64,000 nucleotides of DNA from contig JAJZUU010000009.1 of assembly GCA_021848325.1 (NCBI GenBank), positions 1,580-65,579 of the forward strand. The letters are read 5' to 3'. A program made the position numbers and the translations under genes. Shown here one piece after another: positions 31,949 to 47,868 of the stretch. Numbering within the stretch: the stretch's first letter is position 1; the number at the start of each line of letters is the position of its first letter. The notes below the pieces were generated by a model. The model ran no database searches. It was given only the letters and a program-made list of their open reading frames with translations, and had not been told where the DNA came from. The DNA is from Pseudomonadota bacterium. Lineage in GTDB: Bacteria > Pseudomonadota > Gammaproteobacteria > Burkholderiales > JAJZUU01.

Positions 31949-32016
31949 ACCTCCAGATATATTCCGCAAGGCATTGTTTCGTAATTGACTTGTTTCTGAT
32001 CGGCAACATGAATCTT

Positions 32017-32055
32017 GCCCGGATGGCGGAACAGGTAGACGCTACGGACTTAAAA
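32017..32055 (+). pseudogene. leuZ: tRNA-Leu(UAA) 5' half (acceptor, D arm, anticodon 5' stem and loop), separated from its 3' half by the insertion
   Basis: GCCCGGATGGCGGAACAGGTAGACGCTACGGACTTAAAA. Joined to 47821-47868 it gives a perfect 87-nt class II tRNA. Confidence 0.9.
32047..32055. repeat. attL core (GACTTAAAA)
   Basis: Identical 9-mer at 47812-47820. Corresponds to the last 2 nt of the anticodon stem plus the 7-nt anticodon loop. Confidence 0.8.
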
Positions 32056-32137
32056 ACATCTTGTGGTGTAGTATTTTCAACGGTTAGAAGCACATTGCGC
32101 GTAAAAGTGCGTAATCCGTTGAAAAGGAGCCAACACC

Positions 32138-33256
32138 ATGGGGTCGATAGTCGAGTCCAAGAAAATCGGCAAGGACGGTAAGGCCGTCACGATCTACCGG
32201 GCGCACATCCGGCGCACCGGATTCAAGAGCCAGTCCAAGAGCTTCCGCACCAAGACCGAGGCGAAGGAATGGCTGCGCAACAACGAAGCCACCGTCCTGC
32301 TGGAAAAGAAATCCAAGGGGTCAGGCACTACCTTCGCCAAGCTGGCCGAACTATTCGCCGCTGCGCCCCCGATGAAGGGCACGCGGTATTGGGACGCCGG
32401 CCACCTCGATTTCTGGATTGAGCAATTCGGGCCGCTGCGCCTCAACGATGTTACGCACGGCGAAATCAACGCCGCCGTGGCCGTGCTCCAAACCCGCCCG
32501 GCGATGCGCGCCACGTCGAGCGGCCCCAAGCCTACCGGCAAGCTGCTATCGCCGGCCACGGTCAACCGCCATCTGGCTACCCTTTCCGCCGTGATGAACT
32601 TCGCGCTCAAGCGGGGCATGATCGAGGCGCATCCGATGAAGGCCGGCAAGGTGGAGAAGCTGACCGAAGGCAACGGCCGCAAGCGCGTATTGACCAACGA
32701 GGAAGTTACGCGCCTGCTGGCTGCTGCCGAGGGTAGCCGGTGGCCGATGATGCCGCTATTCCTGCGCATGCTGCTGACCACGGCCGCGCGCAAATCCGAA
32801 GTGCTCAACCTTCGGTGGGAGCACGTCAGCTTGGCCGAGTCAGTGGCGATTCTGCACGAAACGAAGAACGGCCGGGCGCGAGCCTTGCCGCTGGTTTCCG
32901 ACGTGCGGGCCGCACTGGAACAGGTCAGCAAGGTGCGGCCGATAAATTCCGACTACGTGTTCTTCGACCCCAAGCACCCGGCCCAGCCCAAGAACGTGGA
33001 CACGATCTGGCACTTTGTGCGCCAACGCGCCGGCCTGCTGAAAGACCGCGACGACCCGCTCGACCAGGTGGTGCTCCACACGACCCGGCATTCAGCCATC
33101 ACCAAGATGCTGAAAGGCGGCGCCAACCTTACCCAGGCCGCCGTCGTGTCCGGCCACCAGACCCTCGCCATGCTCAAGCGCTACGAGCACCTGGCGGCCC
33201 AGGATTCCGTCGAGTTGGCCGAACGCCTGCTCGGCGGTGGTAAATCCGTCGCCTGA
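32138..33256 (+). CDS. int: tyrosine-type site-specific integrase
   Basis: 372 aa with an RBS AAGGAG upstream. C-terminal catalytic motifs (TAARKSE, HTTRHSAIT, GHQTLAMLKRYEH). Confidence 0.92.
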   Translation: MGSIVESKKIGKDGKAVTIYRAHIRRTGFKSQSKSFRTKTEAKEWLRNNEATVLLEKKSKGSGTTFAKLAELFAAAPPMKGTRYWDAGHLDFWIEQFGPLRLNDVTHGEINAAVAVLQTRPAMRATSSGPKPTGKLLSPATVNRHLATLSAVMNFALKRGMIEAHPMKAGKVEKLTEGNGRKRVLTNEEVTRLLAAAEGSRWPMMPLFLRMLLTTAARKSEVLNLRWEHVSLAESVAILHETKNGRARALPLVSDVRAALEQVSKVRPINSDYVFFDPKHPAQPKNVDTIWHFVRQRAGLLKDRDDPLDQVVLHTTRHSAITKMLKGGANLTQAAVVSGHQTLAMLKRYEHLAAQDSVELAERLLGGGKSVA

Positions 33257-33336
33257 CGGTTTCAGGCAAAGCGGGCCGGCGCGGTGGGCAAACACCGGCC
33301 GGCCCTGACCGAAACGCAACTGCAAGGAGTTACGAA

Positions 33337-33762
33337 ATGGCTACCCAAGAGAATATCAAACCAGCGACCGAAGCCGCAGAGCGCGACGCACTCAACGAAG
33401 CCGCAGAGCGCGACGCACTCAACGAAGCAAGCATGGCACTCGGCCGGGCGTGGGGACTTGCTGAAACCCTATGTTTTCAAGCGGGCGAACGCCCCGACGA
33501 TTTCGACGTCGAGGGCGTCATGCGCGTGATTCACTCGCTGGTGGGCCAAGCGAAGGCGAAGGTAGGCGCTCGGGCCGTTGATCTGGAAATCGACGCCGCG
33601 CTGGCGGTTTGTTGTCTGGTCATGGTGGATTCCCAGGAAAGCGCCTATGACCCCGGCTCGTCGTCATCGTGGGCACTTGAGGCTGTACCGAGCGCTATTC
33701 AGCGCGCGAAGGATGCAGTCGACGCTGTGCCCTGGGGCCTCCCTCAACTGAAAGCCGCTTGA
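33337..33762 (+). CDS. hypothetical protein with an internal 9-aa duplication
   Basis: 141-aa ORF with RBS AAGGAG. No family recognised. Followed by a terminator. Confidence 0.55.
   Translation: MATQENIKPATEAAERDALNEAAERDALNEASMALGRAWGLAETLCFQAGERPDDFDVEGVMRVIHSLVGQAKAKVGARAVDLEIDAALAVCCLVMVDSQESAYDPGSSSSWALEAVPSAIQRAKDAVDAVPWGLPQLKAA
33370..33423. repeat. perfect 27-bp tandem duplication (2 copies plus 5 nt of a third)
   Basis: GAAGCCGCAGAGCGCGACGCACTCAAC x2, encoding EAAERDALN twice. Confidence 0.95.
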
Positions 33763-33767
33763 TTCCG

Positions 33768-33789
33768 GCCGCCTGCGGGCGGCTTTTTT
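33768..33789 (+). terminator. intrinsic terminator
   Basis: Stem GCCGCC/GGCGGC with loop TGCG, followed by a T6 run. Confidence 0.75.
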
Positions 33790-33830
33790 ATTCGATGACG
33801 TATAAATAACTTTGTGCCTGTTTGTGATGC

Positions 33831-33859
33831 TTGGCAATCGGTGGCGGTCAAGGTATAGT
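33831..33859 (+). promoter_or_regulatory. sigma-70-like promoter
   Basis: TTGGCA, 17-nt spacer, TATAGT. Confidence 0.6.
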
Positions 33860-33865
33860 CGCTGA

Positions 33866-34067
33866 CAGTATCTCGAAACGAAAACCGCGAAGCCAGACCG
33901 CAACGACTGGTGCAGTACGAGGCAACACCCCCGAGCGAAAGCTAAAGGTGGTGGTAACGGCCCCCAAGGAATGCACCGCCCTTGGAACCGATACCCCCTA
34001 GCCCCCGGCTAGGACAGGCGCTTAGAGATATAGACCGGAGCACTACATGCTGCCGGTCTTTTCATTT
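33866..34067 (+). ncRNA. candidate ~200-nt structured leader/small RNA ending in an intrinsic terminator
   Basis: Lies between promoter 33831-33859 and hairpin GACCGGAGCA...TGCTGCCGGTC plus TTTTCATTT (34033-34067). Internal hairpins CCAAGG/CCTTGG and CTAGCC/GGCTAG. No convincing ORF. Confidence 0.4.
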
Positions 34068-34102
34068 GTGGCGACCGGTAGCACCTCGCAGGAGAGTGCG
34101 CC

Positions 34103-34342
34103 ATGCAAACCACGAACACCCAAGAAGCATTTGAGTTAAGCGACCTTCGCGCCGTCGAAGCGCTCGCCGCCGAAAATCCCAAGTACCTGACTGTATCCAC
34201 GCTGCGCTGGCAGCTTCGCCACCGTGACACCAACGGCCTGGCCGCCGCGTGCGTGCGCGTCGGCAAACGCCTGCTGATTTCCAAGTCGCGTTATGAGCAC
34301 TGGCTGGCGACCCAAACCGAAGCGGCGCGGGGTGTGGCATGA
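34103..34342 (+). CDS. excisionase/AlpA-type helix-turn-helix DNA-binding protein
   Basis: 79 aa with RBS AGGAGA. HTH_17-like sequence LTVSTLRWQLRHRDTNGLAAACVRVGKRLLISKSRYEHWL. Confidence 0.7.
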   Translation: MQTTNTQEAFELSDLRAVEALAAENPKYLTVSTLRWQLRHRDTNGLAAACVRVGKRLLISKSRYEHWLATQTEAARGVA

Positions 34343-34620
34343 GCTACGCCGCCAACATCCCCCCGCAACTTGATTTCAGCAAGCGCGGCATGTGCGCCGC
34401 CCTCAACATGGCCGAGGACGAGTTCACCGACGCCTACCGTAACAAGGAAATCGCGCCCCCGGATAGCGTGCGCTTACGCGAGCCTAGGTGGTCAGTGATG
34501 GCCCTGGGGCAGGAAATCAAGAAACGCACCCCGGCGCATCTGGTGGGGCTGGAAGCCCTGAACTATCAGCTTGAAGCACTGGCTCGCGCCGAACGTGCAG
34601 AAGGGTGGCGACATGACTAA
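34339..34620 (+). CDS. hypothetical protein
   Basis: 93 aa. ATGA overlap with the upstream gene indicates translational coupling. Confidence 0.55.
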   Translation: MSYAANIPPQLDFSKRGMCAALNMAEDEFTDAYRNKEIAPPDSVRLREPRWSVMALGQEIKKRTPAHLVGLEALNYQLEALARAERAEGWRHD

Positions 34621-37081
34621 TGCAACCGCCCGTGCCATTGCGGCGCTACAAAAAGAAATGGCCTCAGGGGAAACTGAGGCCAGCAAAGAAAAAACCACTG
34701 TAAGCGAGAGTGTACCGAGTGCCAAAAATTTAGGCAACGGTCAGTTCGCCGAGCACGGCGCCGCTTTGCTTGCCAACGGCTATTTAATCATTCCAATCAA
34801 GCCGGGCCACAAGCGCCCGGCACTCGACAACTGGCAAACCGCACGACTTGGCGCCGCTGACCTGACCCGATACCCTAACCATGGCGTCGGTGTGCTGTGC
34901 GGGCAAGGTGCCCAGCCCATTGCCGCTATCGACGTGGATACTACGGACGGTGCATTGACTACCCGGTTCGTGGGTTGGTGCCAGGAACACCTCGGCGCCA
35001 CGTGTGAGCGCGTGGGCTTCGCGCCCAAGATCCTGCTCGCCTACCGGGCAGCGTCCGAAGGCTGGGGCAAGGCTACCGGCGCCTGGTTCGAGGACTTGGG
35101 CGGTGCGCGGCACCGGCTGGAAGTGCTGGGCAAGGGTCAGCAGTTCGTGGCCTACCATATCCACCCGGACACGGGCGAGCCCTACGAGTGGGTGGATTTC
35201 TTCGGCGGCCTCGATGCCATGCGGGCCGGCGACCTGCCCATCATCACCGAGGCCCAGGTCGAAGAAGCCCTGCAGGTGTTCGAGGCCATGGCCGAGGAAG
35301 CCGGGCTCGTGCGCGTGTCGGGCAGCAAGACCAAGGCTGGGGGCATGACCTCGGCGCCGGTCGACGACCCGCTCATGGCCTATGAGCCACCGGTCGGCAT
35401 TGACATGGGAGAGGCCCGGCGCCTTGTGTCCTACGTGGATAACGAGGACTACGACACCTGGCTGAAAGTCGGCATGTCGCTGCACCACGAGTTCGACGGC
35501 GACGTGGCCGCGCTGGATTTGTGGGATGAATGGTCGAGCACGGCAACGAACTACGCCAGCCGTGAGGACTTGGAGAAGCGGTGGGATAGCTTCGGCCGAT
35601 CGGGGCGCAACCCGACGACGGCGCGCTGGCTGCTCAAGGTAGCGGGCGAAGCAAAGAAGCCCGACCATGATGCTGGCCGATTAGACGCGGCACGCCGCGA
35701 ACACCAGAAGCAGGAAAACGAGCGCATTGGCAACGGCAACGGCCGTTACCCGACCGTCGAGGTTATCGACCTGAAAGCCGCATTGACCCGATTCGTTTTC
35801 ATGTCGGACGGTTCTCGCGTCGCCGACATCTTCAACCCGCACTACGATCTGGCCTTTTCCGACTGGTCGGCCACGTTCGCAGCCTCGAAGGAGCCGATAT
35901 GGGACGACGAGAAGCGGAAGGAGAAGCTGGTGGCTGTTCCGCTCTTGTGGCGCGCATCGAAGGAGCGCAAGACCGTGGTTTGCCGCACCTTCAAAGCAGG
36001 CGGTGCGCCGGTTCTCAACGATCCCAACGGGAAGCTGGCGCTGAACACCTGGCGCCCGTTTGATCGCACTGCGAACGTGCAGGACATGGCAGCGGCCGGG
36101 GTGGATCTGTTCCTGGATCACGTCGACCTGCTATTCGGGAAGGATGCCCCGCGTTTCCTCGACTGGCTGGCGCATATTGAGCAACGCCCCGGCGAACTCC
36201 CCCATACGGCGTGGCTGCACATTGCCAAGCACTTCGGCCTGGGCCGCAACTGGATGGAATCGGTACTCGCCCGCGTTTGGGCCGGCGCCGTGGCCGCCAA
36301 TCTTGACCTTGTTTCAGTGCTCAAGAAAGACGGCTACAACGGCCGGCTTTCTTGCAAGGTGCTGGCCGTGGTCGATGAAATTCGGGAAGGCGGCCGCGAC
36401 GCGCAGTGGGAGCACTCGGAGAAAATGAAGAGCATCATCACCGAGGAAACGCGGCAGATTAACCCGAAGTACGGGCGTCAGTCGGTAGAGTTCAATGCGT
36501 GCCGCTGGTTGATGTTCTCCAACCACTTGTCGGCCATCCCCCTAGAAGATGGCGACCGACGCATCGAGGTTGTCTATACCGAGGCCCGGCCACGGGGGGC
36601 AGATTACTACGCCAGGCTGTACTCCGTGCTCGACGATGCCATGTTCATCGCCGCCGTAGCGAAGTACCTGGGCGAGCGTGACATTGGCGCATTCAATCCG
36701 GGTGCCCACGCCGTCAATAGCGAATCGAAGAAGGCGGCAACCAAAGCGAGCCAAACCCCAATGGCAGCATGGTGCGAAATGCTGGTCGAGCACTGGCCCA
36801 GTGACCTGATTATGTCGCAGCACCTTTTCGACATCCTGGCGCGCGATGGTGCAGGCGGATCGCTCAACGCCGCACACCGACGAACCTTGGAGCAGCACGG
36901 CGTTGAAGCCCTGGGCAAGCCGTTGAAGGTGGAAGGCCGGCCGGTGCGCGTTTCAATTGTTCGCAACAAGGAACGGTGGAAACAGGCAGAACCTAACAAC
37001 CTGCGCGACGAGTTGGCGAAGGCCAATCCCGGATTGGACAGTGCCCGCGACTACCTGATGGAGTTTGCAGCGTGCGGGTAA
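34613..37081 (+). CDS. replication protein: bifunctional primase-polymerase N-terminal domain + PriCT-like + SF3/D5-type helicase-like C-terminal domain
   Basis: 822 aa. Prim-pol-like GYLIIPIKPGHKRP...GVGVLCG...IDVD, PriCT-like YDTWLKVGMSLHHEF and helicase-like LAVVDEI (Walker B). Start at ATG 34613 with RBS AAGGGTGG (34571 is an alternative). Confidence 0.8.
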   Translation: MTNATARAIAALQKEMASGETEASKEKTTVSESVPSAKNLGNGQFAEHGAALLANGYLIIPIKPGHKRPALDNWQTARLGAADLTRYPNHGVGVLCGQGAQPIAAIDVDTTDGALTTRFVGWCQEHLGATCERVGFAPKILLAYRAASEGWGKATGAWFEDLGGARHRLEVLGKGQQFVAYHIHPDTGEPYEWVDFFGGLDAMRAGDLPIITEAQVEEALQVFEAMAEEAGLVRVSGSKTKAGGMTSAPVDDPLMAYEPPVGIDMGEARRLVSYVDNEDYDTWLKVGMSLHHEFDGDVAALDLWDEWSSTATNYASREDLEKRWDSFGRSGRNPTTARWLLKVAGEAKKPDHDAGRLDAARREHQKQENERIGNGNGRYPTVEVIDLKAALTRFVFMSDGSRVADIFNPHYDLAFSDWSATFAASKEPIWDDEKRKEKLVAVPLLWRASKERKTVVCRTFKAGGAPVLNDPNGKLALNTWRPFDRTANVQDMAAAGVDLFLDHVDLLFGKDAPRFLDWLAHIEQRPGELPHTAWLHIAKHFGLGRNWMESVLARVWAGAVAANLDLVSVLKKDGYNGRLSCKVLAVVDEIREGGRDAQWEHSEKMKSIITEETRQINPKYGRQSVEFNACRWLMFSNHLSAIPLEDGDRRIEVVYTEARPRGADYYARLYSVLDDAMFIAAVAKYLGERDIGAFNPGAHAVNSESKKAATKASQTPMAAWCEMLVEHWPSDLIMSQHLFDILARDGAGGSLNAAHRRTLEQHGVEALGKPLKVEGRPVRVSIVRNKERWKQAEPNNLRDELAKANPGLDSARDYLMEFAACG

Positions 37082-37098
37082 TACCTTGCAGCGAACAC

Positions 37099-37261
37099 GT
37101 AACCGGCCGCCGATTGGTGGCCGTTTTTGTTTGGGCGGTTACGCTGGTTACGCTGGTTACGCTCAATATATAAACGTCAAACCATTCATTTTATTGATGG
37201 TTACTTTTTAGAAACGCCGTAACGAGCGTAACGAGCGTAACCGACCGCCGATTGGTGGCCG
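37099..37261. other. putative replication origin: inverted iteron triplets flanking an AT-rich core
   Basis: GGTTACGCT x3 (37137-37163), a 50-bp AT-rich stretch (37164-37213), then an inverted AGCGTAAC(C/G) x3 (37216-37242). Bracketed by a direct 25-bp repeat GTAACCG(G/A)CCGCCGATTGGTGGCCG (37099 and 37237). Confidence 0.65.
37104..37133 (+). terminator. intrinsic terminator after the replication gene
   Basis: Stem CGGCCGCC/GGTGGCCG (one G.U) with loop GATT, followed by TTTTTGTTTG. Confidence 0.65.
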
Positions 37262-37278
37262 AATTTCCGCGCAGTACG

Positions 37279-37520
37279 TGCGCGCGAGGCAACAAAAAAA
37301 ATTGACACCTGAAAAAGGCCCAAACTTCACGCATCGCGCGCGGGCATGCGCGTGTGGGGCTGGGCATCCGCACACCTGAAAAAGGGGCGGCAGCGCCTTG
37401 CTAGACGCATCGCGCGTGCGCATGCGCGCGAGGCAGACGTCCTAGGCCTCTAGACGATGGGGACCTAATCTCGCGCGTGCGCATGCGCGCGAGGCAGACA
37501 CCGTCCAGACACCTGAAAAA
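37279..37520. repeat. GC-rich repeat array / probable operator region
   Basis: 28-bp perfect repeat CGCGCGTGCGCATGCGCGCGAGGCAGAC at 37411-37438 and 37472-37499, with a related TGCGCGCGAGGCAAC at 37279. ACACCTGAAAAA at 37305, 37372 and 37509. ACGCATCGCGCG at 37329 and 37405. Confidence 0.85.
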
Positions 37521-37688
37521 ACGGCCGCAACGGATCAACTGACCGCTGGCAATCAAGCAACAGTGCGCCCTCAGCCGGCGTGTGCGTAATCCCGAGCGTA
37601 AAGGGCATGGTGCACGTACCTCGTAGGGGTGCCCGTACCTTTCTGTCTGACAAATACAGTCATCCCATGACCACCGGACAGAAACGAC

Positions 37689-37889
37689 ATGCCCAAGCTG
37701 ATAACCCTCGAAGAAGCTGCCGCCCGATGCGGCATTTCGCGCCGGACGGTGGATCGCTACGTCGAGCGCGGGCAGTTCGTGGCTCTCTATCAACTCCCTA
37801 CCGGCCACCTTCGCGTTGATGAGCACGACCTCAACGCTTGGCTGGCCGCATGCCGCACCGACAACCAACCGAAGGAAGCCACCCAATGA
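37689..37889 (+). CDS. excisionase/MerR-type helix-turn-helix DNA-binding protein
   Basis: 66 aa, LITLEEAAARCGISRRTVDRYVERGQF...LRVDEHDLNAWL. Confidence 0.7.
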   Translation: MPKLITLEEAAARCGISRRTVDRYVERGQFVALYQLPTGHLRVDEHDLNAWLAACRTDNQPKEATQ

Positions 37890-38782
37890 GAACCGCAGCC
37901 ATCGACAAGGAACTCGCCAAAGAGCACGAACAGCTTGGCGAGGCCCGAGCAGCAGCAGCCGAAGCCGCTGAGAAGCTGTCCACCGAACCCGGCAACAAGA
38001 AACATCGTTTGGCCGTGCTGGAAGCGCAGGCACGAGCCGATGAAATCAACGTGACCATCGAGGCCCTTAACCTGGCCCGCGAGCAGGCGGTCAAATTCGA
38101 TCAGTCCGAGGAAGGCCAGGCCACCCGCGCCAAGCGGGCGTCGATGGTGGCAACCGTGCGCGATGCCAATGCACAAATGGTTGCAGCAGCGGCCGCCGTC
38201 GACGAGGTGCTGGCCGCACTGCGCACCTGCGCCGTGCAATTCGCCGACGCTCGCTTGGCCGCTCAAAGTGCTAGTGCCGCCTATCTCGACCTGAACGAGA
38301 GCGACCTCGACGCCCGGATGCACGACTACCAAGCCCTGAACCACGAACCCGGCAACGTGGCGCACGCCTTGGCATTGACACTGCACGACATTGTTACTGC
38401 CACCGGACTGGATTGCAGCCACTTCCTCACGTTCAACCCCTACACGCTGACGCCCAACAGTGGCGTGGGCGGTGAATTCTTGCGAACCCTTGAACAAGGA
38501 GCACGGGCCAACACCCTGCGCGCTGTCACAACCCTGGCACATATCGAGGCAGTGCATACCGGCACCTATGTGCCGCCACCGCCCATGGAGCAGCCCAGAC
38601 CCAACCTGCACGCCGACCACTTCATCGCCGCGAACTTCAACGAACTGATGGAGCACGTTGCTGCAACCGGCGAAGAGCCAGCCCTCGACCCGGACGAAAC
38701 GCACACGATTGCAAAGGATTGGGACGAATACTTGGCTGCAACCTCGGGCCTCGAATCGCCCAAGGTGCTGCACCAGGAGTAA
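37886..38782 (+). CDS. hypothetical alanine-rich, predominantly helical protein (scaffold-like by composition only)
   Basis: 298 aa. ATGA overlap with the upstream HTH gene. N-terminal coiled-coil-like region. Confidence 0.6.
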   Translation: MRTAAIDKELAKEHEQLGEARAAAAEAAEKLSTEPGNKKHRLAVLEAQARADEINVTIEALNLAREQAVKFDQSEEGQATRAKRASMVATVRDANAQMVAAAAAVDEVLAALRTCAVQFADARLAAQSASAAYLDLNESDLDARMHDYQALNHEPGNVAHALALTLHDIVTATGLDCSHFLTFNPYTLTPNSGVGGEFLRTLEQGARANTLRAVTTLAHIEAVHTGTYVPPPPMEQPRPNLHADHFIAANFNELMEHVAATGEEPALDPDETHTIAKDWDEYLAATSGLESPKVLHQE

Positions 38783-38788
38783 CCAGCG

Positions 38789-38995
38789 ATGAATTACACC
38801 CCCGTCAATGTGCCGCTGCAAAGCCCCGAGCGCGTGGTCTATCCGCACGAGGTGACACCACCGCGTGAGTGTGAGGTCAGCAGGCCGAGCCCGACAGAGG
38901 CAGCGACATCCTGGTCGGGCTTCCACAAGCGGGGGTGCTATGAGCGAAGAAGCCAAGCGATACATCGTGCGCGAATACCTCGATCTTCACCCTGA
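38789..38995 (+). CDS. hypothetical small protein (uncertain)
   Basis: 68-aa ORF with a good RBS (AGGAG 9 nt upstream), but it overlaps the next ORF by 56 nt. Confidence 0.3.
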   Translation: MNYTPVNVPLQSPERVVYPHEVTPPRECEVSRPSPTEAATSWSGFHKRGCYERRSQAIHRARIPRSSP

Positions 38996-39122
38996 CAAAG
39001 AATTCCGGCGCGCGGTCTTTGCGTTGCTGCTTCTCGACAAACCTGAGCACCTAGACACGCTCTACGACATGGCCGTGCGCTTCGGCATGTGCGGCGAGAT
39101 TGTCGAGGGCGTTTTCATTTAA
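38940..39122 (+). CDS. hypothetical small protein
   Basis: 60 aa (MSEEAKRYIVREYLDLHPDKEF...) with RBS GGGGGTG. Confidence 0.45.
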   Translation: MSEEAKRYIVREYLDLHPDKEFRRAVFALLLLDKPEHLDTLYDMAVRFGMCGEIVEGVFI

Positions 39123-39134
39123 GGAGTCTTAACC

Positions 39135-39578
39135 ATGGCAATCATCGACGCAGCAACGCAGTTTTCCAACGCTCAAACCGTGACCGGTGCGAGCGCTGTC
39201 CTTTCCGCCAATACCCTTGATGCGCTACAGAACCGCGATATGGGCGGTGGTAAATCTTTTCAGGTGCTGTTTCAGGTCGGCACCGCATTTGCCGGCCTGA
39301 CGGCCCTCGAAATGCAGATCATCACGGCCGACGATGCCGGCCTGACCACGAACGTGAATGTGCTGGGCAGTACGGGTGCCATTCCAGTGGCTTCGCTGAC
39401 GGCGGCCGCCAGGTTCTACGCCAGCATCAACCCGCGCATCGGCAACAAGGGGCAGCGCTACATCGGCTGCCGCTACATCCCGACCGGCACCGGCACGGCT
39501 GGCACGATCAGCGCGCAAATCGGTGGCGACGTGGGCGACTTCAAGCCGGTTTATCCAACCGGCTATTCCGTGGCTTAA
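39135..39578 (+). CDS. Bbp16-like (phage capsid cement/decoration-type, jelly-roll) protein
   Basis: 147 aa with RBS AAGGAG. Pattern FSNAQTVTGASAVLSANTLD...RDMGGGKSFQVLFQV...ALEMQIITADD...RYIGCRYIPTGTGTAG resembles the Bbp16 family as I remember it. Not verified by search. Confidence 0.5.
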   Translation: MAIIDAATQFSNAQTVTGASAVLSANTLDALQNRDMGGGKSFQVLFQVGTAFAGLTALEMQIITADDAGLTTNVNVLGSTGAIPVASLTAAARFYASINPRIGNKGQRYIGCRYIPTGTGTAGTISAQIGGDVGDFKPVYPTGYSVA

Positions 39579-39589
39579 GGGGAACAATC

Positions 39590-40629: not shown

Positions 40630-40834
40630 CGCCGGTTTGCGCATCGGTGAGGATCATCCGAACGCCAAGCTGACCGATGCCGAAGTGGAACGCATCCGCA
40701 GCCTGCACGAGGAAGGCATGGGCTACGAGGCTATCGCCGAAAAATACGAAGTAAGCAAGTGGTGCATCGGGCGTATTTGCCGATACGAACGCCGGGGGCA
40801 AACCACTGCACGCTGGAAAACAATCGAGGAGTAA
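40604..40834 (+). CDS. small HTH DNA-binding protein (paralogue of the N-domain of 40117..40629)
   Basis: 76 aa, HPNAKLTDAEVERIRSLHEEGMGYEAIAEKYEVSKWCIGRICRYERR. RBS GGAGA upstream of ATG 40604. Confidence 0.55.
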   Translation: MTLAVAVNDAGLRIGEDHPNAKLTDAEVERIRSLHEEGMGYEAIAEKYEVSKWCIGRICRYERRGQTTARWKTIEE

Positions 40835-40839
40835 AACCC

Positions 40840-43449
40840 ATGCCAACCGTACCCCGTTTCGACGGCCCGCAAGTAACGCCCAACACCTTGCCCCAGGTGC
40901 GAGTCGATACGCCTGAGTTCCACAACTACGCCGCCGACCAGGCGCAGCAATTAGGGCGGGCCATGAGCAACTTCGGCGGCCACATGACCGAGATTGCCAC
41001 CGACGCGCAAAACGAAGCCAACAAGACTGTGGCCAAGGACATCGACACGCAAGCCACGGCGGCTATCGGTGACGTGCTGTACAACCCGCAGAGCGGTTAC
41101 ATGGTCAAGGAAGGCAAGGACGTGGTCGCCGGCTATGGCGATGCAACCGAAGCCCTCAAGCAAGTGCGCCAGAAGGCCCTCGATGGGGTGCAGAACACGG
41201 CAGTGCGCCAAATGGTCGAGCCGGTCATCAATGCCCGGATGCAGAATGCCCTCGAAACGATCAACCGGCATTCAGGCACCGAAACTCGCCGCTATCAGGT
41301 GCAGACCTCGGATTCGCGGGCCATCGTCACGTTGCAGGACGCTGCCTTCAACTACGACGATGACAAGCGCTTCAACGAAGCCCTGGCCGTCACGCGGGAT
41401 GAAACCAACAACCTAGCCAAGCTGCAAGGCTGGGACGAAGCCACGGCACGCTTGCAGGCGCAGAAATACGCCGACACCGGCAACCGCATGCGCTACGAAG
41501 CCTGGGCAATCAAAGACCCGGTGGCCGCCTTCGCCCACTTCCAGCAAAACGCCGAGGGAATAAGCCCGCTGGTGCGCGACAACATCGGCCGCCAGCTTTT
41601 CCAGCATGCTGCCCCGGTGCTCGCCACCATTGTGAATCAGACAGGCGGGCCAGGCGTGGTGCCCTCTGCACCGGGCGACATGACAGCGCCGCGCGGCATC
41701 CGCAACAACAACCCTGGCAACGTCATGCGCGGCAGCGACACGTGGCAGGGTGAGGTGCAAGGCAACGACCCGCGCTATGCCAGCTTTGCGACGCCCGAGG
41801 CCGGCATACGGGCCATGGGCAAGACCCTCATCAACTACCAGGATAAGCACGGCATCAACACCGTGGAAGGCGTCGTGTCGCGCTGGGCGCCAGCCACCGA
41901 GAACAACACGGCCGCCTACGTCGCCACCGTGGCGAAGGAAATGGGCGTCAAGCCCGATGCAAACCTCGATTTGCACGACCCCGCAACGCTCAACAAGCTG
42001 ACCCGCGCTATGATTCGCGTCGAGAACGGCAAGCAGCCGTACACGGACGATCAGATCGCGCTGGGTCTGGCTGCCGCCACCGGCAACACCCCACTGCCAA
42101 CGGCGGCCAGTGCCAAGCGCGACCCCAATGCCTCTACCGGCATCGGCCTGGTTGACGGCCTGCCCGCCGACTGGAAGCTGCATGTGTTGCAGCTTGCGCG
42201 CAGCCAGGCGCATCAAGACATGGCCGAGGCCCGCGAATCGCTGCGCGGCCGGGTGCAGGATGCCAGCGCCGAGTATATGGCGAATGGCTTTGCATCCAAC
42301 CCGCCGAACGAGGCCGAATTTATCCGCGCTTATGGACAGGCCGAGGGCGCCGGCCGGTACCGTGATTTCCAAAGCGTCGCCACGCTGGGTCAAACCCTGC
42401 AACAGGTACGCACGTTGCCGAACGCCGCGCTCAACGACTTGTTGAAATCCTCGAAGCCCACACCGGGCGACGGCTTCGCAGTGCGGCAGCACAACTTCGA
42501 GATTCTTTCGGGGGCTATCGACACCGTGGTGAAGGCTCGCACCCAAGACCCGGTGGCCTACGCACTGACCGGCAAGAGCTACGGCCTTCGCCCGATTCAG
42601 CGCTTCGATGATCCACAGGGCACGGCCCAGGAGCTTGCCCGTCGAGCGGCCGCAGCGCCGCAAATGTCGGCCGACTACAACACGCCGCCGCGCCTCTTGT
42701 CCAACGCCGAGGCCAGCGCACTATCGGCCACGCTCAAGGCCAGTCCGGTGGAAGGGCAAAAGCAACTGCTGGGCACCATTGCAAAAAGCATCAACGACAT
42801 GGGCCTGCTCAAGGCGACCATGCAGTCCATTGCGCCAGATTCGCCCACGGTAGCCGTGGCCGGCATCTATCAGGCGCGCGGCCTGCGCACGACGGAAAAC
42901 CGCGACGTGGCCGACCTCATCCTGCGCGGGCAGGCCATCCTTACCCCGAACAAAAAGGAGGACGGCAGCGGCCACATGGGCGGCGCGTCGCTCATCAAGA
43001 TGCCCGAGGAAAAGCTGCTGCTATCCGACTGGACAAGCGCGACCGGCGACGCTTTCAAAGGCCGCGAGCAGGCCGCCGACCTGTTCATGCAAACCGCCAA
43101 GGCCATCTATGCGGCCCGCAGCGCCGAGGAAGGCGACTACTCGGGCGTGATCGACTCGAAGCGCTGGAAGGCCGCCATCAACCTGGCAACGGGCGGCATC
43201 GAGAGCCACAACGGCAGCAAGATCGTGATGCCCTACGGCGTGCCCTATGACAAGTTCCAGAATGCGCTGCAGGGCCAGGTCGACCGCATCGTGAAGGACG
43301 GCGGCGCACTAAACACCTCGACGCGCGAAATGATGCGTCTGCCACTGGAAAACGTCGGCGACGGCCGCTATCTGTTCCGGCGAGGCACCGGCTATCTGGT
43401 GGGCAAGGATGGCCGCCCGGTGGTGGTCGATTTGAACGGGGGCCGCTGA
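40840..43449 (+). CDS. large virion-associated (internal/ejection-type) protein candidate with GIRNNNPGN motif domain
   Basis: 869 aa with RBS GAGGAG. N-terminus MPTVPRFDGPQV... and central PRGIRNNNPGNVMRGSDTWQGE...YASFATPEAGIRAM, both recalled from phage structural proteins. Confidence 0.55.
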   Translation: MPTVPRFDGPQVTPNTLPQVRVDTPEFHNYAADQAQQLGRAMSNFGGHMTEIATDAQNEANKTVAKDIDTQATAAIGDVLYNPQSGYMVKEGKDVVAGYGDATEALKQVRQKALDGVQNTAVRQMVEPVINARMQNALETINRHSGTETRRYQVQTSDSRAIVTLQDAAFNYDDDKRFNEALAVTRDETNNLAKLQGWDEATARLQAQKYADTGNRMRYEAWAIKDPVAAFAHFQQNAEGISPLVRDNIGRQLFQHAAPVLATIVNQTGGPGVVPSAPGDMTAPRGIRNNNPGNVMRGSDTWQGEVQGNDPRYASFATPEAGIRAMGKTLINYQDKHGINTVEGVVSRWAPATENNTAAYVATVAKEMGVKPDANLDLHDPATLNKLTRAMIRVENGKQPYTDDQIALGLAAATGNTPLPTAASAKRDPNASTGIGLVDGLPADWKLHVLQLARSQAHQDMAEARESLRGRVQDASAEYMANGFASNPPNEAEFIRAYGQAEGAGRYRDFQSVATLGQTLQQVRTLPNAALNDLLKSSKPTPGDGFAVRQHNFEILSGAIDTVVKARTQDPVAYALTGKSYGLRPIQRFDDPQGTAQELARRAAAAPQMSADYNTPPRLLSNAEASALSATLKASPVEGQKQLLGTIAKSINDMGLLKATMQSIAPDSPTVAVAGIYQARGLRTTENRDVADLILRGQAILTPNKKEDGSGHMGGASLIKMPEEKLLLSDWTSATGDAFKGREQAADLFMQTAKAIYAARSAEEGDYSGVIDSKRWKAAINLATGGIESHNGSKIVMPYGVPYDKFQNALQGQVDRIVKDGGALNTSTREMMRLPLENVGDGRYLFRRGTGYLVGKDGRPVVVDLNGGR

Positions 43450-44729
43450 TGAGCTTCGACCTTTTCCCGAATGAGCAAGGGGCCGCGCTGCTGAATGCGG
43501 CGCGCCATCCTTCCACCACGCCCGAGCCCGGCGCCTTCGACAACTTCTTCAGCGGCGCCGGGCAATACACCATGCGCAGCCTGGCCGAAGCAGGCCGGGC
43601 CGTGTCCCTGGCCGGTGCTGTTGTGCCCATGGCAATCGACAAGATGACTGAGGGCGACAATTTCAGCGGCAAGAGCCTGACCGACCGCTACTTTGAAACC
43701 CACGACGAGGTGTTCAACAACGCCGTCGACTACTGGACGCCGAAGCCCGGCGAGGTGGGCGCAGCCGGCCAGATTACTGGGCAGCTTGCCGGGGGCATCT
43801 TGCAGGCTGTTGTGCATCCGGCCTTGTTGGTCGGCACCGCCGCGCTGTCGCCGGCCGAGGACTTGGTGCGCGAGGGCGTGGATGCGAGCACGGCCACCAA
43901 GGTGGGCGTCATCCAGGGCGCGGGCGCCGCCATCGGCTTGAAAATGCCGTTTCTCGGGCAGACGCTCGCCACGCGCGTGCTGTCTGGCGCGGGCGGCAAC
44001 CTGTTACAGGGCACGGCAGGCGCGGCCGCATCGTCGGGCGTGCTCAAGGCCGAGGGCTACGACCAGCAGGCCGAGCGATTCAACCCGTGGGATATGCGCG
44101 CCCGCATACTCGACACGATGCTTGGGGCCGCTTTCGGCGGCCTGGCGCACATCGGTGCGAAAGGCGAAGCCAAGGCGCCCAAGCTGACCCCGACCGACGA
44201 GGCCGCGCTGTTGGTGGCGAATCAGGCGCGGCATATCGAGGACGTGACCCCGCAGGGCCGGCCGGCGACCGATGCCGACGCAACGATGCACGCCGATGCG
44301 ATGCGCCAGGCCGTCGAGCAGGTGCTGCGCGGCGAGCCGGTCACTATCGACGGCCTGGTCAAGGACATGCACATGGTGCCCGACGAGGCACTGACACGGC
44401 AGCGCACCGAAGTGACCGACGAGGCCCAGCGCATCGCGGCCCTGGAAGCACCCATCGAGGCCCCCATCCTGCCCAAGATCGAGCCCGGCGCGCCCGTGGC
44501 TGATGCCATCCCGGCCGAGCACAACCCGGCGAGCCTCAAGGCACGGCAGGCTGTTGTGGATCGCCCCGACCTGACCATTCCGACCAACCGCACCGACGCG
44601 GACGGCAACCCCATCACCCTGCGCGCCGCCGACGCGCTGGCCCTGGCTGATGCCGATGTGGCGCACGCCCAGGCTACCGCCGCCAGCGTGTTCAAAACGG
44701 CAGCCCATTGCCTTCTAGGAGCCCTGTAA
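43449..44729 (+). CDS. hypothetical Gly/Ala-rich protein with hydrophobic segments (ejection-protein-like)
   Basis: 426 aa. Start overlaps the previous stop. Contains GAAGQITGQLAGGILQAVVHPALLVGTAAL and GVIQGAGAAIGLKMPFLG stretches. Confidence 0.5.
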   Translation: MSFDLFPNEQGAALLNAARHPSTTPEPGAFDNFFSGAGQYTMRSLAEAGRAVSLAGAVVPMAIDKMTEGDNFSGKSLTDRYFETHDEVFNNAVDYWTPKPGEVGAAGQITGQLAGGILQAVVHPALLVGTAALSPAEDLVREGVDASTATKVGVIQGAGAAIGLKMPFLGQTLATRVLSGAGGNLLQGTAGAAASSGVLKAEGYDQQAERFNPWDMRARILDTMLGAAFGGLAHIGAKGEAKAPKLTPTDEAALLVANQARHIEDVTPQGRPATDADATMHADAMRQAVEQVLRGEPVTIDGLVKDMHMVPDEALTRQRTEVTDEAQRIAALEAPIEAPILPKIEPGAPVADAIPAEHNPASLKARQAVVDRPDLTIPTNRTDADGNPITLRAADALALADADVAHAQATAASVFKTAAHCLLGAL

Positions 44730-47258
44730 ATGGCCGACCCTTTTCGCTGTATTGCCGCGCTCAACAAGGCCGCAGGCAAGGAACTGAACCCGGACGAAGC
44801 CCTTGAGGTTTTCGACCGCATCCAGCGCACGGCGCGCGACTTGGCAGCCGGCCGCATCCAACCCGAGGGCGGGGCGAATCTTTCCAGCCCGGAAGGAATC
44901 ATGCAGCACGCTGCCGAACTTGCGGCCAAGGAGTTGATCCACGACAAAATCCGGCAGCAGCACAACACGCACCTGCGCATTGCCATCCTGGGGGAGCGCA
45001 AGGCCGAGGTCGAAGCAATGAAGGGTGGGGGCATCGGCGACGTGGATGCAGTGCGTCGCCTCATCGCAAACGACCCGGACGGCCGCGCGGATCGCTTCTC
45101 GCTCGAAGCCCGCGTGCACGGCGTTTCCAACCTGCTGAAATCGCGCATTCAGGACACGTGGGCGGCCCTGGGCAACGACTTCCTGGGCTTCATCCAGCAG
45201 CACGACAAAATCCGCGACCTCATCACCGAAATGAAGGGCCAGGACAGCGGCAATGCGCTGGCGAAGAAGGGCGCGGAAGCCTGGGCAAAGGCCGCCGAGG
45301 AATCACGCGCATGGTTCAACGAGAAGGGCGGCGAAATCGGCCACCTCGACGACTGGGGCTTCCCCCAGCACCACAGCCAGGAGCACGTCGCCAAGGCCGG
45401 CGTGGATGCCTGGGTGGCCGATGTATATCCAGCGCTCAAGCTGGACAAGTACGTCGACCTTGCAGGCAATCGCATGACCGAAACCCAAATCAAGGAACTG
45501 CTCAAAAATGCCTGGTGGTCAATTGCCACCAACGGCGCCAACAAGATCGAGCCCGGCAAGGCGCGCGGCCACGGCGCCCGCGCGAACCGCCACGCCGAAG
45601 AGCGCCAGATCCATTTCAAGGATGCCGACGCGGTGCTCGCCTATTGGGCCAAGTACGGGGAAAAGACCTTTCCCGACATTCTGGTCGGCCACCTTGAACA
45701 AATGGCAAAGGACATCGGCTTCATCGAGCATTTCGGACCGAACCCGGACGGCGCCTATCGGGTGCTGCGCGACGAAGCCGAGCAGGCCGCGAAAATGTCA
45801 GACCCGGCATCGCTCGACAAGATCGACAAGGAACTGGCGCGCCTCGACAACCTCTACGACTACGCGGCCGGGCGCGCCAAACCCGTGGCGAACCGTGCAG
45901 TGGCGGGCGTGTTCGACGCGCTGCGCAACCTCAATTCAGCCGGCAAGCTGGGCAGCGCATTTTGGGCCTCGTTCTACGGCGACAAGGTCATGCTCGAAGC
46001 CATGGGCCGCGTCAATAAGCTGCCCATGTGGCAAAGCTGGTACAACGAGGTGCGCTTGCTCAACCCGTTCAACGGTGCCGAGCGCCGCCAGTTGCAGCGG
46101 CAAACCCTCATGCTCGATTACATGAAGTCGGCCATGTACCGCTTCGGCGACGACCTGGGCCGCTCATCCTGGACGGGCAAAATGTCGAACGCCGTCATGA
46201 AGCTGTCGGGCATGTCGGCAATCAACGAGTGGCGGCGCGGTGCCTTCGGCCTCACGATGATGGATAGCATCGGCCACGAGGTGAGCACAAAGACCTGGGC
46301 CGAAGTCGGCCAGCAGGACATCCACCTGCTCAAATCGTTCGGCCTCACCGAGGCGGATTGGAATATCTGGAAGCTGGCCCAGCTTGAGGACTACGGCCAC
46401 GGCAACAACACCATGCTGACCCCGGAGGCCATCGCCAAGATTCCCGACGAGGCCCTGGCGCAGATTGGCATAGAGAACCCGGCGCAGGCCCGGCGCGAGG
46501 CCGTGGTCAAGTACCTGGGCGCGCTGCATTCCGAATCGCTCAACGCCGTGATCGAGCCCGGATGGAAAGAGCGCGCCAGGATGGTGGGCGGCTTGCAGCG
46601 CGGCAATCTGCGCGACGAAATCACGCGCAGCTTCTGGCAGTTCAAGGCGTTCCCGATTACACAATTCGAGCGCCTTCGGGACATCGGCCTCTCGCGGCCG
46701 AACGCGGGCGGCAAGGCCCAGTTCATCGGCGCGGTGCTGCTCATGCAAACCATGGCCGGCGCCATGATGCTGCAAACGCAATCGCTGCTATCAGGGGAAG
46801 ATCCCCGCCCAATGGATGATTGGAAATTTTGGCTTGCCGCTTTCATCAAGGGCGGCAGCCTGGGTATCTACGGCGACTTCCTCTACTCGCAGAGTGGCAC
46901 GACGCGCTACGGCAGCGGCCCGCTGGAAGTGCTGGCCGGCCCGACCATCGGGTCGGCGGCCGATGCGGTCACGGCACTGGTGCAGGCGGGTAACGCCGTT
47001 GCAGCCGGCAAGGATACGCACCTGGGCGCCAAGCTGCTGAACATCGCCAAGGGCTACATCCCCGGTCAGAACCTTTGGTACACCAGGGCGGCCACCGACC
47101 ACATCATCTTCCAGAATGCGCAGGAAGCGCTCTCGCCGGGCTACCTGGCGAACATGCGGGCCAATTCGGTGCGGCAGTTCAAACAGGACTGGTGGTGGGC
47201 GCCGGGTGAATTTACGCCGGATCGCGCGCCCGACATGGCGAACGCGCTAGGGAGGTGA
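44730..47258 (+). CDS. large hypothetical virion-associated protein candidate
   Basis: 842 aa. Start immediately follows the previous stop. C-terminal hydrophobic segments (FIGAVLLMQTMAGAMMLQ, FWLAAFIKGGSLGIYGDFLY). No family recognised. Confidence 0.5.
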   Translation: MADPFRCIAALNKAAGKELNPDEALEVFDRIQRTARDLAAGRIQPEGGANLSSPEGIMQHAAELAAKELIHDKIRQQHNTHLRIAILGERKAEVEAMKGGGIGDVDAVRRLIANDPDGRADRFSLEARVHGVSNLLKSRIQDTWAALGNDFLGFIQQHDKIRDLITEMKGQDSGNALAKKGAEAWAKAAEESRAWFNEKGGEIGHLDDWGFPQHHSQEHVAKAGVDAWVADVYPALKLDKYVDLAGNRMTETQIKELLKNAWWSIATNGANKIEPGKARGHGARANRHAEERQIHFKDADAVLAYWAKYGEKTFPDILVGHLEQMAKDIGFIEHFGPNPDGAYRVLRDEAEQAAKMSDPASLDKIDKELARLDNLYDYAAGRAKPVANRAVAGVFDALRNLNSAGKLGSAFWASFYGDKVMLEAMGRVNKLPMWQSWYNEVRLLNPFNGAERRQLQRQTLMLDYMKSAMYRFGDDLGRSSWTGKMSNAVMKLSGMSAINEWRRGAFGLTMMDSIGHEVSTKTWAEVGQQDIHLLKSFGLTEADWNIWKLAQLEDYGHGNNTMLTPEAIAKIPDEALAQIGIENPAQARREAVVKYLGALHSESLNAVIEPGWKERARMVGGLQRGNLRDEITRSFWQFKAFPITQFERLRDIGLSRPNAGGKAQFIGAVLLMQTMAGAMMLQTQSLLSGEDPRPMDDWKFWLAAFIKGGSLGIYGDFLYSQSGTTRYGSGPLEVLAGPTIGSAADAVTALVQAGNAVAAGKDTHLGAKLLNIAKGYIPGQNLWYTRAATDHIIFQNAQEALSPGYLANMRANSVRQFKQDWWWAPGEFTPDRAPDMANALGR

Positions 47259-47347
47259 GCGGCGCGGCTACGAGGTCAGACACTAGCCGCTTCTCAGGCC
47301 GGGGTGACACTGCTCGCCCGGCCGCCGCTTTGAAATTGTAGCCTTGT

Positions 47348-47645
47348 TGGTGCCTGGGACGGGAATCGAACCCGTATAGCTTTCGCCGAGGGATTTTCGT
47401 CACACTACGGCTTTCGCCGCCAGCCTTCGCCGTTCGTGCGCTGGACTATGCCTTCACCATGGCGCTGCGCGCTGTAGGTGCCCCCCGTCTAGTCTCTACA
47501 CCTTCCCCTTGCGAGGCTTGGCTCGGCGTTGCCTCGGCCCGAAGGTCAGGGGTTTCACCGAATTTGAGGGGATTCACGCGGGCGCTTTCGCTCCCCGGTG
47601 CTCAATGTTTAAGTCCCTTGTGTCTACCAATTTCACCACCCAGGC
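47348..47645 (-). tRNA. tRNA-Leu (anticodon UAA) gene interrupted by a group I intron
   Basis: Exons 47645-47611 and 47397-47348 join to an 85-nt class II cloverleaf with all four stems Watson-Crick paired and loop CTTAAAA. Confidence 0.88.
47398..47610 (-). ncRNA. group I intron (bacterial tRNA-intron type, IC3-like), 213 nt, no ORF
   Basis: P1 CTTAA/TTGAG places a U.G wobble at the 5' splice site, and the intron ends in G. Core strings TCAAATTCGGTGAAACC, GGCAACGCCGAGCCAAGC and GAAGGTGTAGAGACTAGACGG are present. Confidence 0.85.
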
Positions 47646-47657
47646 GGCGAAACGCGT

Positions 47658-47686
47658 ATTTTACCGGAGAGTGCGCAGCGCGTAAA
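47658..47686 (-). promoter_or_regulatory. sigma-70-like promoter for the element-borne tRNA-Leu
   Basis: On the minus strand: TTTACG, 17-nt spacer, TAAAAT. The -10 ends about 12 nt upstream of the tRNA 5' end. Confidence 0.55.
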
Positions 47687-47811
47687 ATGCGCGTAACACA
47701 CAGCACAATTCACCACAAAACAACACGCCAGGATGACACCCCAACACAACAAAAGCCCCCGTTTTCATTGCGTTACGTTGCGTTGCATTGAGTGGGTTTG
47801 CGTTGGGCCTT

Positions 47812-47820
47812 GACTTAAAA
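47812..47820. repeat. attR core (GACTTAAAA)
   Basis: Identical to 32047-32055. Confidence 0.8.
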
Positions 47821-47868
47821 TCCGTTGACCGAAAGGTCGTACCGGTTCGATTCCGGTTCCGGGCACCA
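47812..47868 (+). pseudogene. leuZ: tRNA-Leu(UAA) 3' part (anticodon loop, 3' stem, variable arm, T arm, acceptor, CCA)
   Basis: GACTTAAAATCCGTTGACCGAAAGGTCGTACCGGTTCGATTCCGGTTCCGGGCACCA. Complements the 5' half at 32017-32055. Confidence 0.9.

Follow-up and report, generated by a model that had tools for sequence, protein, structure and literature searches.

How does a cell keep the function of a tRNA gene that is cut in two by an integrative element and rebuilt at neither end? Canonical tRNA-targeting elements carry the displaced 3' tRNA segment, and an intact gene is regenerated at attL. A different situation was found for a chromosomal tRNA-Leu(UAA) gene of a member of the Burkholderiales, which is interrupted in its anticodon loop by a 15.8-kb element. 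We analysed the 64,000 nt around this gene (positions 1,580 to 65,579 of contig JAJZUU010000009.1, assembly GCA_021848325.1), referred to as the window in the following. Our explanation, to which we give a probability of about 75%, is the integration of an element that carries an intron-split tRNA-Leu(UAA) gene as a replacement, similar to tRNA-dependent lysogeny. The strategy itself is known; new here are the betaproteobacterial host, the small satellite-like podovirus relative as carrier, and a replacement tRNA gene that is split by its intron inside the crossover core.

According to this explanation, the integrase of the element would have catalysed site-specific recombination at the 9-bp sequence GACTTAAAA in the anticodon stem-loop and reduced the host gene to two dead halves. 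The element's own tRNA-Leu(UAA) gene, located behind a promoter-like site, would compensate for the loss, with a 213-nt group I intron being spliced from the precursor to yield an 85-nt tRNA. Integration would be tolerable only through this replacement tRNA. Precise excision, of which the element may still be capable, would restore the host gene.

The interrupted host gene and its intact counterparts

Positions 32017-32055 on the plus strand (GCCCGGATGGCGGAACAGGTAGACGCTACGGACTTAAAA) read as the 5' half of a tRNA-Leu gene, comprising the acceptor strand, the D arm, the 5' side of the anticodon stem and the 7-nt loop, and form the host side of attL. The last nine nucleotides (32047-32055) are the attL copy of the common core GACTTAAAA, which corresponds to tRNA positions 30-38. 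The core is repeated exactly at 47812-47820 on the plus strand (attR) and is followed there by TCCGTTGACCGAAAGGTCGTACCGGTTCGATTCCGGTTCCGGGCACCA, the 3' half of the host gene (47821-47868, plus strand) with the 3' side of the anticodon stem, the variable arm, the T arm, the acceptor strand and CCA. Exact copies of the core in the window were found only at these two junctions. ARAGORN called an 87-nt tRNA-Leu(taa) when the two host halves were joined. The split of a host tRNA-Leu(UAA) gene in its anticodon loop and the limitation of the duplication to 9 nt, both part of the original prediction, which was made from the sequence by eye, were confirmed in this way.

With default settings, ARAGORN found only tRNA-Gly (31482-31556) and tRNA-Cys (31832-31905) in the window. 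Neither the attL nor the attR junction gave a tRNA with ARAGORN, with or without introns allowed, or with the Rfam tRNA model, in agreement with the claim that no tRNA is regenerated at either side. On the attachment site of the element, the identity to the tRNA ends after 9 nt. Since this site contributes no further tRNA segment, only two dead halves remain of the host gene. The order uvrC-pgsA-tRNA-Gly-tRNA-Cys-tRNA-Leu, which had been likened to E. coli, was checked and matches uvrC-pgsA-glyW-cysT-leuZ of E. coli K-12.

We also searched by eye for a diverged tRNA half beside attL and attR. The only candidate, a 10-nt match to AATCCGTTGA at position 32113, belongs to an inverted repeat located upstream of the integrase gene. 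As an acceptor and a T arm were missing, reconstitution of a tRNA from this sequence was rejected.

A comparison with relatives lacking the insertion had been proposed together with the original prediction, and it gave a clear result. Two near-identical contigs from other samples (L001 and L004), which were found via the exact PgsA protein, carry an intact 87-nt tRNA-Leu(taa) gene, with both halves contiguous, between tRNA-Cys and an aminotransferase gene. The tRNA-Gly and tRNA-Cys genes are present in these contigs as well. L001 aligned to positions 24867-32055 of the window with 99.69% identity and to positions 47812-53207 with 99.80% identity. The two alignments of L001 have precisely the 9 nt of the core in common, and the breakpoints at 32055 and 47812 are exact to the base. 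The metagenome-assembled genomes GCA_027357355.1 and GCA_027438195.1 also carry the element. The occupied arrangement was present in at least five independent assemblies, and the site is polymorphic (occupied or empty) among strains that are 99.7% identical.

In three Logan contigs (L014, L139 and L140), the sequence begins exactly 30 nt ahead of the final nucleotide of the anticodon loop. If the Logan assembly uses k=31, which we take to be the case, this is what an assembly graph gives that branches at the crossover point, with occupied and empty sites coexisting in a sample.

Just downstream of tRNA-Cys, a decayed copy of a tRNA-Leu 5' half and its junction was observed (31905-31953, plus strand), which is 76% identical to 32012-32060 (repeat family D6). 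L001 and L004, in which the site is empty, contain this copy as well; it predates the present insertion. Its anticodon-stem side, ACACAAGGGA, is closer to the element-type tRNA than to the host tRNA. It may be the scar of an older integration or replacement event.

An intron-containing tRNA-Leu(UAA) gene in the element

When introns were allowed, ARAGORN called a tRNA-Leu gene within the element, c[47348,47645](taa), in which an intron of 213 nt is placed at position 36. A distance of about 165 bp separates this gene from the core, and it is encoded on the strand opposite to the host tRNA. Its 35-nt 5' exon (47611-47645, minus strand; GCCTGGGTGGTGAAATTGGTAGACACAAGGGACTT) ends in GGGACTT, and the 50-nt 3' exon (47348-47397, minus strand) reads AAAATCCCT...CCCAGGCACCA. 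The predicted spliced product reads GGGACUU-AAAAUCCCU and, with its 85 nt, folds in ARAGORN as a clean tRNA-Leu(UAA) with a long variable arm. Default ARAGORN and the Rfam tRNA model did not report this gene. It was overlooked by eye and by default tRNA finders because the intron interrupts it. A promoter-like site (TTTACG-17 nt-TAAAAT; 47658-47686, minus strand) is located just upstream of the tRNA gene; it is a match to the consensus only and is kept in the related contig L135. Two such sites were observed versus 0.2 expected.

In the original prediction, the host gene was inactivated as long as the element is integrated. Its disruption stands, but the implied loss of tRNA-Leu(UAA) function is probably the wrong conclusion in view of the element's own tRNA-Leu(UAA) at 47645-47348. 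The host gene is disrupted and, very probably, replaced in its function. For this, the precursor would have to be transcribed and spliced, and the resulting tRNA would be charged and would decode UUA.

The intron (47398-47610, minus strand) is inserted between U34 and A35 of the anticodon loop, starts with AAACATTGAG and ends in G (GTGTGACG). The Rfam model RF00028 (Intron_gpI) matched positions 47621-47426 on the minus strand with 37.2 bits (E=1.9e-6 in a 17.5-kb search, E=5.4e-8 in a 0.5-kb search). The splice sites read CUU|AAACAUUGAG...GUGUGACG|AAAAUCC. The exon sequence CUU can base-pair with GAG of the intron, so that U(-1) would face G as a U-G wobble in P1.

Covariation was analysed in an alignment of 25 precursors, for which an RNAalifold consensus of tRNA stems and intron helices was used, with the pairing GACUA/UAGUC added. 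For the 74 pairs, 98.6% of the cells in the alignment were paired. Changes on both sides were seen in 45 of the 74 pairs, compared to 12.4 ± 2.7 in shuffled alignments (none of 500 shuffles reached the observed value) and to at most 18 when the partners were slid. The GACUA/UAGUC pairing is invariant across the alignment; its designation as P7, like the other helix names, is our own reading. The sequence from the window forms 72 of the 76 consensus pairs. The intron is predicted to be self-splicing.

Related introns were searched in viral contigs with two conserved core segments, and in metagenomes with a GC-rich version of the core. The scan of the viral contigs resulted in 17 contigs, on which ARAGORN with introns called Leu(taa), Met/Ile(cat), Gln, Tyr and Pro tRNA genes. 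As seen in the IMG/VR contigs L016-L031, the introns have about 200-260 nt and occur in several isotypes, in some cases on large viral contigs with tRNA arrays. The viral contigs suggest that intron-containing tRNA genes are not rare. The metagenome scan resulted in 22 contigs (L116-L137), and in 19 of these a tRNA-Leu(taa) was called whose intron occupies the same position. These 19 tRNA-Leu(UAA) genes are near-identical, have introns of 247-274 nt of the same lineage, and several of the contigs have lengths of hundreds of kb. Probably, these genes are chromosomal and belong to a single group of soil or rhizosphere bacteria. On none of the intron-bearing contigs among L116-L137 was this integrase family found nearby.

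The core of the element intron presumably resembles that of the Azoarcus tRNA-Ile intron closely, which we take as a lead and not as a test. The Leu.3Ug introns of cyanobacterial and plastid tRNA-Leu(UAA) genes, which are listed in subgroup IC3 together with this Azoarcus intron, are located at the same U34/A35 site with the same CUU/a...g/AAAA boundaries (Williams 2020, bioRxiv 10.1101/2020.01.27.920355). The element intron resembles this type also in the possible U-G wobble in P1 and the terminal G, and it has the core and the covarying helices in common with the 19 metagenome tRNA-Leu(UAA) introns. It differs in that it sits in the tRNA gene of a mobile element, the integrase of which targets the uninterrupted form of the same tRNA.

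Other hosts and competing explanations

The same core and the same architecture were found in contig SRR19845293_345, which stems from a different host species and has different flanking genes. At its attL, a tRNA-Leu 5' half continues into CTTAAAA|ACATCC (GCCTCGATGGTGAAATTGGTAGACACAGCGGACTTAAAA|ACATCCAGTGG) and is followed by an integrase with 89% identity to that of the window. At the right end, a tRNA-Leu(taa) gene on the minus strand, interrupted by a 213-nt intron, comes after a homologue (88% identical) of an 842-aa virion protein of the element. About 165 bp past this tRNA, the contig reads GGGCCTT-GACTTAAAA-TCCGTCGC..., the latter part being the host 3' half. For the joined halves of this host, ARAGORN called a 92-nt tRNA-Leu(taa).

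The element tRNA of the second host (L142, 6628-6932) is 89% identical to the joined host halves (L148 and L142). Both are identical from the D arm to the variable arm except for one base in the anticodon stem, and the remaining differences are confined to the acceptor and T stems. This likeness points either to gene conversion involving the element copy and the host halves or to recent capture.

More distant relatives show the same gene order and an unrepaired attL: L138 (Magnetospirillum aberrantis), L139 and L140, with integrases of 85%, 83% and 69% identity, respectively. In L138 and L139, attL contains 5' halves of tRNA-Leu(UAA) genes with different anticodon stems, while a tRNA-Leu(UAG) 5' half is present in L140 (1-110). 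The far contig end of the L140 element (L141, 6800-6873) stops inside the 3' end of a minus-strand tRNA, at the position equivalent to that of the tRNA in the window element. The integrases of L032 and L033 are 58-59% identical; these contigs begin at the integrase start codon, and attL lies outside them. In L135 the homologue of the 842-aa protein is only 36% identical, yet the intron-containing tRNA and the adjoining arm are near-identical (87% mean column identity in the A2 alignment including flanks). This contrast implies that the integration and tRNA cassette was exchanged between elements or is strongly conserved. Contigs L143-L147 have the virion-protein module in common with the element, combined with other integration modules, and none carries an intron-containing tRNA; L145 ends at an intact tRNA-Ser. 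The intron-containing tRNA is therefore linked to the integrase and attachment site rather than to the structural module.

In the Magnetospirillum aberrantis contig L138, a 408-aa open reading frame (ORF; 8647-9873) has an integrase-like C-terminus and stops 5 bp short of the tRNA-Leu 5' half of attL. It may belong to a second element in tandem at the same tRNA.

The strongest competing explanation, which we nevertheless regard as improbable, assumes that the disruption is harmless, since the host has a further tRNA-Leu(UAA) gene. The element tRNA would then be an accessory, for example for codon supply or against defences that cleave tRNAs, and the intron a selfish passenger. This would be consistent with the scope of the tRNA scan, which covered the window and the contigs, and with the occurrence of similar introns in tRNA genes of many isotypes on tRNA-array viral contigs and in chromosomal tRNA-Leu genes. 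It would also be consistent with the TTA usage of the element (1.94 per 1000 codons), which is only slightly higher than that of the host genes (1.16 per 1000 codons). Against a second copy counts that betaproteobacteria usually carry one tRNA-Leu(UAA) gene, and the host presumably has no other. Furthermore, the pairing of a non-restoring attachment site with a tRNA of the same anticodon recurs in the second host and in L135, and in mycobacteriophages this pairing is functionally necessary (PMC10865867).

It is far less plausible still that the host loses tRNA-Leu(UAA) without compensation during integration, as a costly or regulatory knockout like that of bldA in Streptomyces. The lack of a tRNA at both junctions and the low frequency of TTA codons in the host genes would fit such a knockout. 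However, the tRNA-Leu(UAA) gene of the element is complete, its intron is structurally intact, and in other hosts this gene is kept beside the attachment site. TTA codons are also present in the housekeeping genes uvrC (3 codons) and pgsA, and in the ORF at 51808-53499 (dnaX by the position of the L001 gene call). These codons imply that a tRNA with the anticodon UAA is needed, unless another gene copy exists.

A chimeric assembly of a phage contig into the tRNA gene, or a chance likeness of the two halves to a tRNA, can be practically dismissed: the assemblies are metagenomic and several contigs break at tRNA repeats, but an identical occupied site in so many independent assemblies is no assembly artefact, and the two empty sites, the base-exact breakpoints and the 9-nt overlap also speak against it. 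Equally negligible is the formation of a tRNA from the host halves by trans-splicing as in Nanoarchaeum, or by removal of the 15.8-kb insert at the RNA level, which is favoured by the perfect complementarity of the two halves and by nothing else; no ribozyme or intron signal was found at the element boundaries by the Rfam scan, direct repeats and an integrase are present in the insert, leader sequences complementary to each other were not seen at the junctions, and bacteria are not known to possess the archaeal splicing endonuclease pathway.

Some points weigh against the replacement of the host gene by the intron-split tRNA of the element. The Intron_gpI score of 37.2 bits is lower than the gathering score of 50, the curated threshold of the Rfam model. 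For bacterial tRNA introns, scores of at least 18-20 bits were accepted by Williams (2020, bioRxiv 10.1101/2020.01.27.920355), since the Rfam seed is without bacterial sequences. The four positions at which the window sequence is mispaired are all located in one peripheral helix (alignment columns 52-76, read as P2). The element has no recognisable capsid, portal or terminase gene and would therefore not be a phage lysogen in the strict sense. The junction expected for the excised circle, GGGCCTTGACTTAAAAACATCTTGTGG, had no match in the viral contig collection, a result that is uninformative. The host species, an uncultured betaproteobacterium, is absent from the genome collection, which leaves room for a second chromosomal tRNA-Leu(UAA): the exact tRNA pattern had no match in the species-representative genomes, and the scan with the flanking aminotransferase gave at best 79% identity (Nitrosomonadales, Gallionellales and Thiobacillus-like metagenome-assembled genomes), with different synteny. 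Finally, expression, splicing and complementation by the element tRNA are what we infer from the sequence.

Tyrosine integrases of the anticodon-loop class that Williams distinguished in 2002, for example those of HP1 and P22, reportedly cross over in the 7-nt loop. The element resembles canonical tRNA-targeting islands and prophages in having a tyrosine integrase that acts at the 7-nt anticodon loop and an integrase gene beside the attachment site. In contrast to the elements that restore the tRNA, identity stops at 9 bp here and nothing is regenerated.

The original prediction had treated the disruption as if it had no precedent, and this did not hold. Disruption without reconstitution together with an element-borne tRNA of the same isotype was described as tRNA-dependent lysogeny for the mycobacteriophages Fionnbharth, Cluster L and Gaia and was suggested for the Lactobacillus prophage Lj965 (Guerrero-Bustamante and Hatfull, mBio 2024, PMC10865867). 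In these phages the core used by the tyrosine integrase has about 10 bp and lies in a host tRNA gene; the tRNA is not rebuilt, and lysogens need the isotype-matched phage tRNA to survive. The authors considered that the strategy may occur outside actinobacteriophages. The element of the window is similar in that the gene of its tyrosine integrase (PF00589) lies beside the attachment site (82 bp from the core), that the anticodon loop is the target, with a core of 9 bp compared to 8-10 bp in the phages, that no tRNA is rebuilt at attL or attR, and that it carries a tRNA of matching isotype (c[47348,47645]). It differs in its betaproteobacterial host, with relatives in an alphaproteobacterium, and in being a 15.8-kb element without recognised capsid, portal or terminase genes, probably not a complete temperate phage. 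The replacement tRNA is intron-split here, whereas the word "intron" appears in PMC10865867 only within a cited title. The necessity of the tRNA was demonstrated by experiment for the phages, while for the element it is presumed.

Bioinformatic cases are also known from Sinorhizobium meliloti prophages, similar to the Mesorhizobium phage Lo5R7ANS, in which a tRNA gene is inactivated by integration and replaced by one of the same isotype (PMC11476347, PMC12429752). Like the element, they combine inactivation of a host tRNA with an element-borne tRNA of the same isotype in Proteobacteria; they differ in the host class, Alphaproteobacteria, and the main texts of both papers do not contain the word "intron". 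According to a review from 2014 (PMC3984707), all phage introns known at that time were located in protein-coding genes, despite the many phage tRNA genes. Full-text searches of an incomplete library yielded no account of tRNAs with introns in phages or integrative elements. With the replacement of tRNA-Leu(UAA) by the element, a destroy-and-replace strategy for which experimental evidence exists only from actinobacteriophages would also occur in Proteobacteria, and in a small element resembling a satellite. It would also have consequences for annotation: a tRNA gene on which a cell may depend can be hidden from routine annotation by a group I intron, and surveys of islands that disrupt tRNA genes would misscore such cases as knockouts.

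Intron position and gene content of the element

The intron is located between tRNA positions 34 and 35 and hence inside the core sequence, so that the element's own copy of the core is split into GACTT|AAAA, 213 bp apart. At the junction of 5' exon and intron the element tRNA reads GACTTAAAC, which matches 8 of the 9 nt of the core in the window, and GACTTGAAT in the second host. The integrase family accepts targets with differing anticodon stems (ACGGA, GGCGA, AGGGA and GCGGA). Nucleotides 10-35 of the 5' exon, together with the AAAA added by splicing, equal all 30 nt that contig L139 contains of the targeted tRNA half. Since this target is identical to the spliced tRNA of the element over 30 nt, an uninterrupted element tRNA would probably itself be a target, about 165 bp from the attachment site.

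We tentatively suggest, while considering it less probable than the contrary, that the intron is not a passenger but splits the core and allows the element to carry the gene that its integrase destroys without recombining with itself; in this way the intron may enable the element family. The presence of the same kind of intron in chromosomal tRNA-Leu genes and on tRNA-array viral contigs, where the shield argument fails, speaks against such an adaptive role. An intron that blocks integration and is exploited by the element itself would fit the idea of Randau and Soll (2008) that integrating elements are kept out of tRNA genes by introns and by the splitting of such genes, as it is cited in PMC3218864. 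The likeness to the idea in that form is that the intron lies inside the core and no contiguous attachment site exists; the difference is that host genes of archaea are defended there, while here the protected copy would belong to a mobile element and the intron is a bacterial group I intron. If true, this would be a natural demonstration, provided by a mobile element, that tRNA introns block integrases. With a loop-cutting integrase beside an intron-split copy of the same tRNA, the protection hypothesis becomes directly testable.

A derivation of the attP core from the exon-intron junction of the element tRNA (GACTTAAAAACAT versus GACTTAAACAT) was also considered. It was rejected, as the left flanks are unrelated and the intron of the second host starts with GAATATTGAG.

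The element comprises positions 32056-47811 plus one copy of the core, 15.8 kb in total. The tyrosine integrase gene (372 aa; 32138-33256, plus strand; PF00589, E=1.6e-26) starts 82 bp past the core and has 270 homologues at E≤1e-30; the N-terminus of the protein gave sub-threshold matches to arm DNA-binding and SAM-like domains. A motif next to the integrase gene (GCGCGTAAAAGTGCGTAA; 32097-32114, plus strand) has similar counterparts at the same place in L138, L139, L140 and L148. A second copy (GCGCGTAAAATGCGCGTAA; 47678-47696, plus strand) is located in the arm beside the element tRNA and is kept in L135 and L142. These 18-19-nt motifs of both arms may be arm-type binding sites of the integrase or of a regulator. 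A 79-aa ORF (34103-34342, plus strand) had no Pfam or PHROG match. It co-occurs with the integrase in L032, L033 and L138-L140, is the only ORF besides int that the element has in common with L032 and L033, and is a candidate for an excision or regulatory factor.

Downstream follow genes for a replication protein of the primase-polymerase/helicase type (34571-37081, plus strand; Pfam Prim-Pol, PriCT_2 and DUF5906), a Bbp16-like protein (39135-39578, plus strand; PF21190, E=3e-15) and an internal virion protein similar to T7 gp14 (39590-40117, plus strand; PF24072; PHROG 418 "internal virion protein", E=5e-27). The stretch at 40759-47258 (plus strand; PHROG 992, 873, 1145 and 684) encodes three large virion or ejection proteins of podovirus type with 896, 426 and 842 aa. 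The PHROG families of these proteins are annotated as head, virion structural or transglycosylase-type, and virion structural proteins of phiV10-like podoviruses share about 39% identity with the 842-aa protein. Pfam and PHROG scans of the element recognised no capsid, portal, terminase or tail gene.

The relatives in alpha- and betaproteobacteria (L138, L139, L140 and L142/L148) have the same gene order, and many carrier contigs have a size of 14.8-16 kb. The family is characterised by about 15-16 kb with an integrase, a primase-helicase, a Bbp16-like protein and 3-4 podovirus proteins of the internal-virion or ejection type. The conserved gene order and size imply a conserved small element and not a random remnant. 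By its genes, the element would be a satellite-like or reduced prophage lineage and may depend on a helper. An integrase, a primase, few virion proteins, the lack of capsid and terminase genes and a size of about 15-16 kb fit satellites similar to P4 or to phage-inducible chromosomal islands. The family may represent an undescribed class of podovirus satellites, with ejection proteins encoded by the satellites themselves.

Some minor observations concern non-coding and repeated sequences of the element. Between the broken tRNA and the integrase gene, which is on the same strand as the Gly-Cys-Leu tRNA operon, no terminator was seen (32056-32140), and read-through from the tRNA promoter could drive the integrase gene in the integrated state. 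The same region contains a 10-bp inverted repeat, TTTTCAACGG ... CCGTTGAAAA. A non-coding cluster of direct repeats, among them repeats of 31 nt and of 29 nt (a perfect pair), follows the primase gene (37098-37532) and could be a replication origin. A perfect tandem duplication of 27 bp (33369-33422) lies inside a 141-aa ORF.

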